Below, piece after piece: positions 9,676 to 27,175 of a stretch of 64,000 nucleotides of DNA (position 1 is the first letter of the stretch; each line of letters opens with the position of its first letter). The notes under the pieces are model-generated. The model did no database searches. It had not been told where the DNA came from and saw only the letters and a list, made by a program, of their open reading frames with translations. The stretch comes from a phage, in sequence record PX969468.1; one strand, written 5' to 3'. Made by a program: the position numbers and the translations under genes.

Positions 9676-10230
9676 ATGAAATACTTTGTAACAAGCGACA
9701 CACACTTTCTCCACCAGCGGGTAATGGAGTTCGACTCATGTCAAAAACACAGATCTCAGTATGATCACAATCTTGACAGTATGAATGCGGGAATCATCAC
9801 CAAGTGGAACTCTGTTGTGTCACCTGCAGACACTGTGTTTCACTTGGGGGATATTGCGTGCACTAATGATAAGAATATCAACAAATTGCTTCCAGATGTT
9901 CTAAATATGTTGAACGGACATATTATTCTTGTTCGTGGTAACCATGACACAAGGACGACTGTCAGAATTATGAAAGAGTTCGGTCATGAGGTTGTAGATT
10001 ATTACGAGCTTCGCCACAACAAGAATTTGATCTGTATGAGCCATTACCAGTTTGCAAAGTGGAACAGAAAGCCTCACGGATCAGTCCAACTGTTCGGTCA
10101 TGCTCACGGAACCACACAGCAGTTGTTTGGCAGGCAGTTTGATGTCGGTTGGGATGTGTGGGGGAGACTCTTACCATTAGAAGAGGCATACCGTATTGCA
10201 ATGAGTCTTGCTATTGACAGCGGGGAGTAA
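9676..10230 (+). CDS. calcineurin-like metallophosphoesterase
   Basis: 184 codons; SDTHF, GDI, GNHD and GHAH motifs in canonical order. Confidence 0.6.
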   Translation: MKYFVTSDTHFLHQRVMEFDSCQKHRSQYDHNLDSMNAGIITKWNSVVSPADTVFHLGDIACTNDKNINKLLPDVLNMLNGHIILVRGNHDTRTTVRIMKEFGHEVVDYYELRHNKNLICMSHYQFAKWNRKPHGSVQLFGHAHGTTQQLFGRQFDVGWDVWGRLLPLEEAYRIAMSLAIDSGE

Positions 10231-10277
10231 TCCCTGCTATTTTAAAGAAAATTGCCACACAAGGAGAATCAGGAGAT

Positions 10278-10628
10278 ATGAAAGATGAGGATAAGCTGCT
10301 ATATCTTAAAGTCCCCCTTGAAATACTGTCTATGTCAAAAGTTTTGAATGGCACAACTGGGGAGGTTGTTGTTCTTGACTTATATGACAAGATCGTATAC
10401 TGCTACCTGCACAACTGGTATAAGCTTGGAGAAAATTCACGCTTCACACCCAGCACCAGGAAAATTGCAGCAGATGTTGGGATAAAGAAAACAAAAGCAG
10501 CAGCGTGCGTTAAAACTTTAGAATGTGCAGGAGTGGTTGAAATATCCACACAAGGGAGAGGTAAAAGATGCACATTTTCCAAAGTTTTGCCACCAGAAGA
10601 AGTTATTCGAATGTCAACAACTGGTTAG
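10278..10628 (+). CDS. putative DNA-binding protein (winged-helix/HTH-like)
   Basis: 116 codons; segment TRKIAADVGIKKTKAAACVKTLECAGVVEI has helix-turn-helix character; GGAG RBS. Confidence 0.35.
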   Translation: MKDEDKLLYLKVPLEILSMSKVLNGTTGEVVVLDLYDKIVYCYLHNWYKLGENSRFTPSTRKIAADVGIKKTKAAACVKTLECAGVVEISTQGRGKRCTFSKVLPPEEVIRMSTTG

Positions 10629-10702
10629 ACCAGTAAAAACTTAAACATCTGTACTATAAGGATTTGTATGTTTTATGTTCACTCTGGAGCAGAAGTTAGT
10701 AA

Positions 10703-10783
10703 CTGTCCGTGATACGGACACTACTGTCCGTCACGCGGACACATCTGCCCGTAATACGGACACTAACTGTCCGTGATACGGAC
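10703..10783. repeat. four tandem 17-bp palindromic sites TGTCCGT-N3-ACGGACA spaced 21-22 bp apart
   Basis: copies at 10703, 10724, 10745, 10767; first and fourth are perfect palindromes, second and third have 1-2 substitutions. Confidence 0.85.
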
Positions 10784-10826
10784 ACATAAAGAATATAACT
10801 AAAATAACTAAATAATAAAAAATAAA

Positions 10827-10886
10827 AGATCTAGTACTTATGGTACTAAAGTACATATACTTAACTTATGTAGAATATACTAGATC
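10827..10886. repeat. AT-rich region with inverted repeat GATCTAGTA...TACTAGATC containing two GATC sites
   Basis: 9-bp arms about 40 bp apart read directly; internal GTAC-rich palindromic segments. Confidence 0.7.
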
Positions 10887-10919
10887 CTAAGTACCATGTT
10901 TTAAATTTATTACTTATTA

Positions 10920-11285
10920 TGGGTAGTGTCGGCCCTTCATTGGCACTCGCCTACGAGGGGCGAGATGCCGGGCCTCCATAGTGCACACAATAACAGAAGT
11001 GCATACATGCAGGACTGTTAACATGTGTGGGAACGAAGCGATAGCGCAGGCCAAAGGCCGAGCACTAATGTGGACCACCGACGAAAGCTTGCCAGCGCCG
11101 GAAGGAGTCGGTTGAGAGCCTCCCGCGCGAGTTCGGATAAAGTTTATGTGTGGAAACTGACAAGAAGGACCCTAAATCGCTCCACAGCTATATAAACTAT
11201 ACCAAGTAAGGCAATCGCACCAGTTTGATAGAAAAGCTCGTTACAAAGCGATACAGTGAGTTTTTCTATAACTTGAAGAGGAGGC
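10920..11285 (+). other. GC-rich structured noncoding segment (candidate ncRNA)
   Basis: no ORF of 60 codons or more on either strand across 10629..11289; nested complementary stems such as GGCCC...GGGCC, CGCC...GGCG, GGCC-AAA-GGCC, GGAG...CTCC. Confidence 0.3.
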
Positions 11286-11289
11286 TGCT

Positions 11290-11868
11290 ATGAGTTCACG
11301 CAAAGATGCCAGTGAAAAGATTGCAAAACGTTATCAGAATGAAGAACAGATGGAGAAAACTTTCAAGTGGAAGCCAGGTTTCCAGCGTAATCATTCTAAC
11401 GCTCGTGATCGTAAGCATCCTGATAAGTGGCTAACACCGCCAAATGATGGCATGCAGGTTGGTGATGAGAAGGAGCTATCACCTGGAAAAGATGGCAACT
11501 ACATTCGCACTAAGGACGCTAGTCCAAAGGATGACAGCTATCTTGTAGATAAGGTTCTTAATGGTATTGATGTAGATGTTGACACTACACGGAACTTTTT
11601 TCTTGGGTGGTATCGCACAGGTTTTTTCGACATCAAGGCCATTCGTCGTGTTTGTGATATTAAAAAGTCTGCATATGATGACGACTCGTTACATCGCACA
11701 CTGAGACAATATTCAGAAAGATATGGTCATCCGGTTATCACTCTTGACGATGTTAACGAAGTGATGTATCATGCAGAGGTTGTTGCAGGCAGATTTGGTG
11801 ATGCATATCTTGATATCCTTTCTGCAAACGATGAGGTAATGTTGAATAAGATTTACTACGAACGTTGA
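11290..11868 (+). CDS. hypothetical protein
   Basis: 192 codons; strong RBS GAGGAGG; N-terminal half charged/low complexity. Confidence 0.5.
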   Translation: MSSRKDASEKIAKRYQNEEQMEKTFKWKPGFQRNHSNARDRKHPDKWLTPPNDGMQVGDEKELSPGKDGNYIRTKDASPKDDSYLVDKVLNGIDVDVDTTRNFFLGWYRTGFFDIKAIRRVCDIKKSAYDDDSLHRTLRQYSERYGHPVITLDDVNEVMYHAEVVAGRFGDAYLDILSANDEVMLNKIYYER

Positions 11869-13166: not shown

Positions 13167-13241
13167 GCCCTGTTAGCTTAGTGGATAAAGCAGCGGCCTT
13201 CTAAGCCGTTGACACTGGTTCGAGTCCAGTACGGGGTGCCA
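13167..13241 (+). tRNA. tRNA-Arg (anticodon TCT)
   Basis: hand-folded cloverleaf: acceptor GCCCTGT/ACGGGGT (two G-U), D-arm GCTT/AAGC, anticodon loop CTTCTAA, T-arm ACTGG-TTCGAGT-CCAGT, encoded CCA. Confidence 0.6.
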
Positions 13242-13245
13242 AATT

Positions 13246-13332
13246 GGGGAGTTATCCCGTAGAGGTAGCGGTGTAGACTGTAAATCTATTGTCATTGCGA
13301 CTCGGGTGGTTCGACTCCACCACTCCCCACCA
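13246..13332 (+). tRNA. tRNA-Tyr (anticodon GTA), long variable arm
   Basis: acceptor GGGGAGT/ACTCCCC, anticodon stem GTAGA/TCTAT with loop CTGTAAA, T-arm GGTGG-TTCGACT-CCACC, encoded CCA. Confidence 0.6.
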
Positions 13333-13446
13333 AATTTATATTTTTAAATGCATAAATCATACAGATAATGACATTGATATTTATCGTCGTTTATACTAGT
13401 CACTAACTGCTCGAAAATCAGTGTCATTATCAGTGTAATTTATAAA

Positions 13447-13537
13447 GGAGGGTAGGGAGCAATGGTGCTCAAGCGGTCTTGAAAACCGTCCCGTTGAGGA
13501 TGACTCGATGATGGTTCGATTCCATTACTCTCCGCCA
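13447..13537 (+). tRNA. tRNA-Ser (anticodon TGA), long variable arm
   Basis: acceptor GGAGGGT/ACTCTCC, anticodon stem-loop GCGGT-CTTGAAA-ACCGT, T-loop TTCGATT, encoded CCA. Confidence 0.55.
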
Positions 13538-13635
13538 CATTGTTGACCTTGTAATTAAGCGAAAGCCGGAAGCAGAACCGGATTATCAAATGTTACAGTC
13601 GTCATCGCCGACTAGCCACATGGTCAACATATTGC

Positions 13636-13735
13636 GCTAGGTAAGCCCTTTGGCAAGGGCGAGGATTTTTAATCCTGAAAATAGACGAGGTAGTCGTTGA
13701 ATACATAGGTGGTTCGATTCCATCACCTAGCACCT
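13636..13735 (+). pseudogene. atypical tRNA-like element (Lys-TTT-like 5' half, ~30-nt insert, no encoded CCA)
   Basis: perfect 7-bp acceptor GCTAGGT/ACCTAGC, D-arm GCCC/GGGC, anticodon-like loop TTTTTAA, T-arm GGTGG-TTCGATT-CCATC, but about 30 nt between anticodon arm and T-arm and CCT instead of CCA. Confidence 0.3.
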
Positions 13736-13738
13736 TTT

Positions 13739-13814
13739 GCTGATGTAGCACAATTGGCAGTGCAATTGATTTGTAATCAATAGGTTGCAGGTTCAAGTCC
13801 TGCCATCAGCACCA
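13739..13814 (+). tRNA. tRNA-Thr (anticodon TGT)
   Basis: perfect acceptor GCTGATG/CATCAGC, D-arm GCAC/GTGC, anticodon stem ATTGA/TCAAT loop TTTGTAA, T-arm GCAGG-TTCAAGT-CCTGC, encoded CCA. Confidence 0.7.
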
Positions 13815-13815
13815 T

Positions 13816-13890
13816 GGCCCTGTAGCTGGAAGGTTCAAGCAAGCGACTCATAATCGCCAGACGGTGGTTCAATTCCACCCAGGGCCACCA
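13816..13890 (+). tRNA. tRNA-Met or Ile2 (anticodon CAT)
   Basis: perfect acceptor GGCCCTG/CAGGGCC, anticodon loop CTCATAA, T-arm GGTGG-TTCAATT-CCACC, encoded CCA. Confidence 0.6.
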
Positions 13891-13901
13891 AATAATAAAT
13901 A

Positions 13902-13978
13902 CTCCGCGTAGCTCAGCTTGGTAGAGCGCCTGATTTGGGATCAGGAGGTCGAGTGTTCGAATCACTCCGTGGAGACCA
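13902..13978 (+). tRNA. tRNA-Pro (anticodon TGG)
   Basis: acceptor CTCCGCG/CGTGGAG, canonical D-arm GCTC-AGCTTGGTA-GAGC, anticodon stem CCTGA/TCAGG loop TTTGGGA, T-arm GAGTG-TTCGAAT-CACTC, encoded CCA. Confidence 0.7.
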
Positions 13979-27145: not shown

Positions 27146-27175
27146 GCCTCACCTTCGGGTGGGGCTTTTTGCTTT
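27146..27175 (+). terminator. rho-independent terminator
   Basis: stem GCCTCACC/GGTGGGGC with TTCG loop and TTTTT. Confidence 0.6.

Follow-up and report, generated by a model that had tools for sequence, protein, structure and literature searches.

We identified an AT-rich segment in the genome of an rV5-like phage that we read, with rather more confidence than doubt, as the unwinding element of an iteron-type origin of replication in a Vequintavirus. The segment lies within a 64-kb stretch of DNA (hereafter the window) whose source is a Vequintavirus, an rV5-like myovirus of ~137 kb. A first-pass annotation, made from the letters alone, had likened this place to a classic origin, with an unwinding element next to phased protein-binding sites. 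Computation supports that architecture: the segment is an extreme of duplex stability, it adjoins an array found nowhere else in the genome and a winged-helix gene, and it belongs to a set of seven such modules in related phages. We infer the function by comparison, and on these grounds the conserved unit is most likely the replication origin of the rV5-like phages of E. coli. To our knowledge, the replication origin of rV5-like phages has never been located. These phages are widely used in therapy cocktails and form part of the BASEL reference collection.

Results

The 1.2 kb surrounding the AT-rich segment is 91–99% identical to 119 Vequintavirus phage records. Relative to rV5 and ECP26 the window is in reverse orientation, its plus strand matching their minus strand, and it spans ECP26 positions 27156–91637. 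The complete 137-kb genome of ECP26, which is 99% identical in this region, served as the genome-wide reference. Eighteen records labelled 'Campylobacter phage' (MG0656xx) also match the region, at ~91–96% identity to the E. coli vequintaviruses; their host attribution is doubtful, and the two that we inspected are both marked UNVERIFIED.

On the plus strand the local gene order begins with a polynucleotide kinase gene, followed by a phosphoesterase gene (9676–10230) and a gene for a 116-aa winged-helix protein (10278–10628), the candidate origin-binding initiator. Upstream of the winged-helix gene, at 10214–10243 on the same strand, there is a sigma-70-like promoter (TTGACA, 18 nt, TATTTT, with TG before it) that agrees with the consensus at 10/12 positions. 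Transcription from it would cross the module, and no terminator-like sites were found in 10200–11400. The winged-helix gene is succeeded by a gap of 661 bp (10629–11289) without a convincing ORF, which opens with a variable spacer (10629–10699) between the gene and the array. A minus-strand sigma-70-like match (TGAACA, 17 nt, TATAGT) runs from 10681 to 10653 within this spacer and points into the 3′ end of that gene; the match may be due to chance or may drive an antisense transcript. Downstream of the gap lies a hypothetical plus-strand gene (11290–11868) encoding a 192-aa protein with no match in Pfam, NCBIfam or PDB, and beyond it small ORFs, a tRNA cluster, spanins and the terminase large subunit gene, the last ~4.9 kb downstream of the module. 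The tRNA cluster comprises six genes (Rfam matches) at 13167–13975, as in rV5. Between the module and the 192-aa gene there are ~340 bp (10921–11262) of 54–58% GC without a convincing ORF, containing a strong local hairpin at ~10931–10974. An 18-nt tandem duplication in this GC-rich part (10987–11004) is missing from two relatives, and some records call small ORFs there.

The segment itself (10786–10920) has a GC content of 18–19% and is the lowest-GC window of the 64 kb at both 100 and 130 bp (0.18 and 0.19, the next lowest being 0.25–0.27). By nearest-neighbour free energy it is also the least stable duplex in the window at window sizes of 40–130 (z 4.9–6.3), and it is the stability minimum of the 137-kb ECP26 genome as well (z 4.6–5.9). 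The very AT-rich stretch described in the first-pass annotation is therefore the extreme of its 64 kb in both composition and stability, and the melting prediction that had been proposed as a check singles out the same place in the window and in ECP26. The segment starts with an A-rich tract of 42 bp (10786–10827; 7% GC and 71% A on the plus strand), with ATAATAAAAAATAAAA at 10812–10827, which is a candidate DNA unwinding element and stops at the first GATC. A 59-bp box bounded by GATC sites (10828–10886) comes next, followed by 34 bp of remaining AT-rich sequence (10887–10920) and then by the 340-bp GC-rich stretch.

Directly adjoining the other side of the A-rich tract, and starting 72 bp past the winged-helix stop codon, is an array of four dyad-symmetric units TGTCCGTnnnACGGACA (10700–10785) that are candidate iterons. 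Each unit is 17 bp long with 7-bp arms, and the units lie at 10704–10720, 10725–10741, 10746–10762 and 10768–10784, giving spacings of 21, 21 and 22 bp. A search allowing up to 2 mismatches gave no further copies in the window or across the 137 kb of ECP26. Among relatives the array has 3, 4 or 6 copies, and it is labelled only 'repeat_region' in a few GenBank records. The first-pass annotation had placed the segment adjacent to a palindrome array and described the sites as phased; the array does abut the segment, and the phasing is that of 21–22 bp.

The GATC-bounded box is framed by the arms of a perfect 9-bp inverted repeat, GATCTAGTA (10828–10836) and TACTAGATC (10878–10886), which are 41 bp apart. 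The position given earlier for the first arm holds, and the second arm sits one base further right than had been stated. Each arm contains one GATC (at 10828 and 10883), as had been noted. Taken alone the repeat is not significant: a perfect 9-bp inverted repeat with a loop of 3–60 bp occurs in 21% of random sequences of the same composition. The single-strand hairpin of the AT-rich segment is likewise ordinary (folding z -0.47), and on these two counts we rejected a cruciform or hairpin formed by the repeat. Nor is GATC depleted (305 observed against 319 expected in 64 kb), and two sites within 55 bp are unremarkable, since 23% of the gaps between neighbouring GATC sites are ≤60 bp. The inverted repeat and GATC pair that had been singled out are thus at chance level in isolation; what sets them apart is that both arms and both GATC sites are unchanged in 11/11 diverged vequintaviruses.

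GTAC occurs between the arms at 10834, 10843 and 10851 and again past them at 10891, and these four copies in 61 bp form a unique cluster within the window. Among the 11 vequintaviruses, 3/4 of the copies are each lost in one relative, which led us to reject the cluster as a set of repeated binding sites. The GTAC-rich segments described between the arms are therefore there, as three copies, although the motifs are not individually conserved. Across the window GTAC is about twofold depleted (114 observed against 217 expected from trinucleotides) and GATC is not; escape from a restriction system that recognizes GTAC may be the cause of the depletion.

On the minus strand at 10819–10831, reading from the GATC towards the array, GATCTTTTATTTT is an exact match to the 13-mer consensus of E. 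coli oriC, GATCTnTTnnTTT (PMC4081077). It is single and unrepeated in the module, the ECP26 genome holds 3 matches against 0.57 expected, and the modules of Klebsiella phage KpS8 have no exact match. Given the genome-wide count and the empty KpS8 modules, we keep the 13-mer as a statistically weak resemblance and not as evidence. DnaA boxes (TTATCCACA, ≤1 mismatch) are absent from 10629–11289, the nearest lying at 10542 and 11544, and no IHF consensus was found in the module. Over the whole window, DnaA-box-like 9-mers by the same definition are over-represented (36 against 19.7 expected, a count that 0/100 shuffles reached). Of these, 28/36 are on the minus strand and they do not cluster at the module; the excess may be a coding-strand or codon effect.

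Nucleotide diversity was measured over 11 vequintaviruses picked for divergence. It is 0.013 in the array (10700–10785), 0.004 in the A-tract and 0.009 in the GATC-to-GATC box, and it rises on either side of these, to ~0.05 in the 3′ end of the winged-helix coding sequence (10600–10628), 0.125 in the variable spacer, the highest of the region, 0.070 in the remaining AT-rich sequence (with 10/34 columns variable) and 0.04–0.056 in the GC-rich part. The block 10700–10886, ~190 bp long, is 5–10× less variable than its non-coding flanks (0.04–0.125), and we take it from this alignment to be under much stronger constraint than its surroundings. It ends exactly at 10886, the last base of the second GATC arm, and it is because the conserved block stops there that the inverted repeat and GATC pair gain meaning. 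The AT-rich sequence beyond it, at 10887–10920, is poorly conserved and therefore probably lies outside the functional core.

The 116-aa protein matches PHROG 12838, 'replication initiation protein' (2e-77), and more weakly PHROGs 8102, 428 and 270 of the same description (8e-6 to 7e-3). The Pfam HTH_36 score barely reaches its cut-off (25.2 against 25 bits), DUF6945 falls just short of its own, and the best solved relative is PDB 4ro3, a hypothetical protein (1.5e-5). Only positions 21–95 of the 337-position PHROG 8102 profile are matched; the protein is a single winged-helix domain and has no second domain of the kind that recruits a helicase or loader. Its close homologues are confined to Vequintavirus, and an exhaustive HMMER search returned nine proteins in total, namely the vequintavirus copies and a few remote winged-helix proteins. 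Where a remote homologue has a good HTH_36 domain, the families it matches are those of long initiators of the O-like, Rep and DnaD-like kinds; sequence similarity to O-like families is remote (E 1e-4 to 1e-6). An AF2 model built on 5 near-identical sequences was unusable (pLDDT 42). To judge by these profile matches, the protein appears to be a stand-alone version of an origin-binding winged-helix domain. The phage encodes its own DnaB-like primase-helicase. The ECP26 genome also carries three genes annotated as DNA adenine methyltransferase (L011:11071-12411, L012:43843-44676 and L013:7930-8460), one with a strong Pfam N6_N4_Mtase match, one with a weak, sub-threshold match to Dam/EcoRI-methylase and one without a Pfam family. 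These enzymes may be relevant to the module, given its conserved GATC sites.

Using the phosphoesterase as a synteny anchor, we located counterparts of the module in KpS8 and GAP31, two relatives described below. In all, seven modules in Vequintavirus, Mydovirus, Seunavirus and Henunavirus share, in this order, a winged-helix gene, repeats, an A-rich tract and GATC. The tracts are 39–59 bp long with a GC content of 7–16% and are A-rich on the same strand; the window module has 2 GATC sites and each of the six others has 1–3. The repeats are dyad or direct, and their sequence changes between genera while the tract and GATC are retained. KpS8 (Mydovirus) and Cronobacter phage GAP31 (Seunavirus) encode a 105-aa 'replication initiation protein' that is 33% identical over 48 aa to the 116-aa protein of the window (pairwise E 5e-6). 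Beside this gene, in what we term module 1, are two 23-bp repeats with the palindrome TGCTCAATTTGAGCA, a 59-bp A-rich tract and then AGATCT-N6/7-AGATCT. For GAP31 an automatic boundary gives a module-1 tract of 75 bp, but this runs into the repeat. Erwinia phage pEp_SNUABM_01 (Henunavirus) has the same module-1 layout with one GATC.

A second winged-helix paralogue, 38% identical to the first in KpS8, defines module 2 in KpS8 (L029:29740-30202), GAP31 (L030:701-1135) and Erwinia phage Hena1 (L031:683-1085). Here the repeats are 3′ of the paralogue gene and comprise TGTCCGG (three copies), CTGACAAAAACG (two copies) and TGACAAATTTGTCA. They are succeeded by an A-rich tract of 39–45 bp that starts ...TAAAGAA... 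and then by 2–3 GATC sites. The window tract aligns with the module-2 tracts above composition-matched shuffles (z 2.7–3.8), and a 14-mer, AACTAAATAATAAA, is common to the window tract and the module-2 tract of GAP31. Moreover, paralogues in the relatives match the O-like PHROGs 391 and 678.

The extreme instability of the segment also recurs outside Vequintavirus: the two modules of KpS8 are its first and second least stable 100-bp windows in 143.8 kb. Of the 30 least stable 100-bp windows, 15 each from ECP26 and KpS8, the three that represent modules hold 2, 2 and 3 GATC sites, against none in 20 and one in 7 of the other 27. The winged-helix gene is directed away from the repeats in module 1 and towards them in module 2 and in the window. 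Since gene orientation differs between the module types, the order of the module is independent of the direction of transcription. Near-consensus sigma-70 promoters of KpS8 and the Erwinia phage are situated beyond the limits of the module; at the module-1 loci the repeats are part of the 5′ leader, with a strong promoter on one side and the start of the winged-helix gene on the other. Two Aeromonas phages with a more distant homologue have palindromes flanking ~200 bp of AT-rich DNA without GATC. Searches for further related loci with two sub-alignments gave only six, at least four of which probably belong to phages already compared. Another locus of ECP26, at ~132.5–132.85 kb and outside the window (L013:32540-32840), combines a duplex stability that ranks with the lowest in the genome with direct repeats GAAAACGAAAAACAGATCGAGTACT, promoter-like sites and GC-rich hairpins, and lies in a 1-kb stretch without an annotated CDS.

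In ECP26, where the module is at ~81.4–81.6 kb, cumulative GC skew reaches its global minimum at 83043, which is 1.5 kb away and at a point of divergent transcription. We do not count it as independent evidence, because it coincides with the switch in transcription direction. Skew analysis in the rV5 genome paper gave only such switches, and an origin could not be defined. In the literature searched we found neither replication mapping for Vequintavirinae nor a description of the module.

Discussion

Taken together, the origin reading draws on the stability minimum, the unique phased array, the winged-helix gene family, the bounded constraint and the common order of the seven modules. It is further favoured by the GATC-rich module windows, the independence of gene orientation, the position of the relatives' promoters outside the module and the presence of a phage-encoded DnaB-like helicase. 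Against it we count that the initiator would be a DNA-binding domain only, that HTH_36 is at threshold and that DnaA boxes and IHF sites are absent from the module. The module-1 repeats, being in the 5′ leader of the gene, also fit autoregulation, and neither the inverted repeat nor the 13-mer match carries much statistical weight. Recombination and transcripts are other means by which large lytic phages can begin to replicate.

If the module is an origin, dimers of the 116-aa protein would bind the four dyad sites, as homology and the symmetry of the sites suggest. Dimers are expected because dyad-symmetric sites face a single winged-helix domain, and as the sites are phased at two helical turns the dimers would sit on one face of the DNA. 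The resulting complex, together with negative supercoiling and read-through transcription from the promoter at 10214–10243, would then melt the 42-bp tract, as its extreme instability suggests. The function of the box at 10828–10886 is more speculative: it might be where the DnaB-like primase-helicase is loaded, or its GATC sites might allow Dam methylation or SeqA to modulate opening, or both of these roles might apply. Replication forks would subsequently depart from the origin, with the virion ends being made ~40 kb away.

The explanation closest to this one is transcriptional control, in which the array is the operator of a winged-helix repressor or autoregulator and the AT-rich DNA tunes the expression of nearby early genes, as a bent or UP-like element or as a place where a nucleoid protein binds. 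The protein is annotated 'transcriptional regulator' in many records, its fold is common to the MarR, LexA and CodY regulators, and in Mydovirus, Seunavirus and Henunavirus the module-1 repeats between a strong promoter and the gene have the typical layout of autoregulation. We consider it unlikely, while granting it a real chance: the array is past the stop codon of the gene in the window and at all module-2 loci, and a search of 10786–10920 on either strand (-35/-10 hexamers at 16–18 bp spacing) gave no sigma-70 site, so that a promoter in the segment was rejected. The promoter tables of the rV5 paper list none at the segment, and an 8-bp PhagePromoter feature in the annotation of phage Gotham is a prediction only. 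Control of transcription also leaves three things unexplained: that the lowest duplex stability of the whole genome falls on the tract in two genera, that the operator changes but the A-tract and GATC do not, and that the order is kept despite inversion of the gene.

Repeats and an inverted repeat could equally bind a recombinase or the small subunit of a terminase, and the gene for the terminase large subunit is only ~4.9 kb away, so that the segment might be a recombination hotspot, a packaging site or pac enhancer, or an anchoring site. Phage Gotham is reported to carry terminal repeats of 459 bp and to start packaging at a fixed point (PMC7471380). Its annotated terminal repeat maps to ECP26 121238–121696, in the known 2.5-kb non-coding region of rV5, which is ~40 kb off, outside the window and without a match in it. 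The packaging alternative raised in the first-pass annotation consequently falls, the virion termini being ~40 kb away, and we rejected a terminal-repeat site here. Nor is there an adjacent recombinase or small terminase, the 192-aa neighbour having no match in Pfam, NCBIfam or PDB, and protein–DNA sites of this general class seem to us improbable. We give still less credence to a non-coding RNA or RNA element in or from the segment, such as a promoter or leader for the GC-rich part. It would make use of the 661 bp without a convincing ORF, the strong hairpin at ~10931–10974 and a weak Rfam match to rli43; that match, at 24.6 bits against a threshold of 100, probably reflects base composition, and only tRNAs elsewhere in the window reach an Rfam threshold. 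Folding is unexceptional (z -1.4 and -2.15 in the GC-rich part and -0.47 in the AT-rich part), there is no promoter match, and the GC-rich part is less conserved than the module. Finally, that the segment is a plain AT-rich spacer in which an inverted repeat and a GATC pair arose by chance agrees with the 21% frequency of such repeats in random sequence and with the unremarkable GATC spacing genome-wide, and it is hardly credible in view of a diversity of 0.004–0.009 against 0.07–0.125 in adjacent spacers, the genome-wide stability extreme and the recurrence of the architecture in four genera.

Returning to the module as an origin, a wider hypothesis can be put forward, which we offer as a long shot. 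A single-domain O-like winged-helix initiator of ~100–116 aa may serve the origins of Vequintavirinae at large, its specificity having been swapped repeatedly (five repeat motifs) with the tract and its distal GATC cluster left in place, and with two modules per genome in three genera. Through the GATC sites, the opening of the origin or its re-firing might then be tied to adenine methylation, with either host Dam and SeqA or a methyltransferase of the phage responsible. If true, this would represent a methylation-gated origin in a strictly lytic phage. The changing specificity of the iterons, the persistence of A-tract and GATC and the presence of two modules in some genera offer a compact system for the co-evolution of initiator and origin. 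Moreover, the candidate is sharply bounded, at ~190 bp (10700–10886), and comes with its probable binding protein, which makes the question of the origin directly testable. For phage engineering it marks a region to leave intact and could be the basis of infection-dependent replicons.

Comparison with known systems

The closest parallels are with the origin of phage lambda and its O protein. The iterons of lambda ori are 19-bp imperfect inverted repeats, numbering 4 in lambda and 6 in Stx phages, and unwinding there requires the AT-rich tract beside them (PMC7466680). In both systems the repeats to which the initiator binds, or would bind, are imperfect inverted repeats (of 17 bp here against 19 bp in lambda), the AT-rich tract is directly on one side of them, the iteron number is variable (4–6 in lambdoid phages; 3, 4 or 6 here), the protein has a winged-helix domain, origin-binding in lambda and putatively so here, and the site is within a transcribed region. 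However, lambda ori is inside the O gene, whereas the present module is ~70 bp past its gene. The C-terminal part of O recruits P-DnaB; here there is a 116-aa DNA-binding domain and the phage has its own DnaB-like primase-helicase. The conserved GATC cluster at the far edge of the tract is a further difference from lambda.

Iteron plasmid origins (RK2 oriV/TrfA, F oriS/RepE and P1 oriR/RepA) similarly place specific repeats by an unwinding element and use winged-helix initiators without an AAA+ domain (PMC4081077). Plasmid Rep proteins differ in having two winged-helix domains and binding direct repeats as monomers, against one domain and dyad-symmetric sites here. In P1 oriR the GATC sites are inside the AT-rich region, and the origin depends on Dam methylation. 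A further contrast with plasmid origins is that no DnaA boxes are present here, and that the replicon is a lytic 137-kb phage and not a copy-controlled one.

With E. coli oriC the module shares an AT-rich, thermodynamically weak region, a GATC at the start of a T-run and one exact match to GATCTnTTnnTTT, and in both GATC is enriched relative to other AT-rich DNA (PMC4285127 for oriC). There are three 13-mers in oriC, against the one match here, which is not retained in other genera. Moreover, the module has neither DnaA boxes nor an IHF site, and its candidate initiator is phage-encoded.

Lastly, the origins of T7 and T4 consist of a promoter and then an AT-rich unwinding element, and are primed by transcription in lytic phages that have their own helicase-primase. 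They resemble the present case in the phage's own helicase-primase and in the AT-rich element downstream of a promoter. They differ in that they have no iteron array and no dedicated origin-binding protein, whereas here the tract has the array and the winged-helix gene as its conserved partners.
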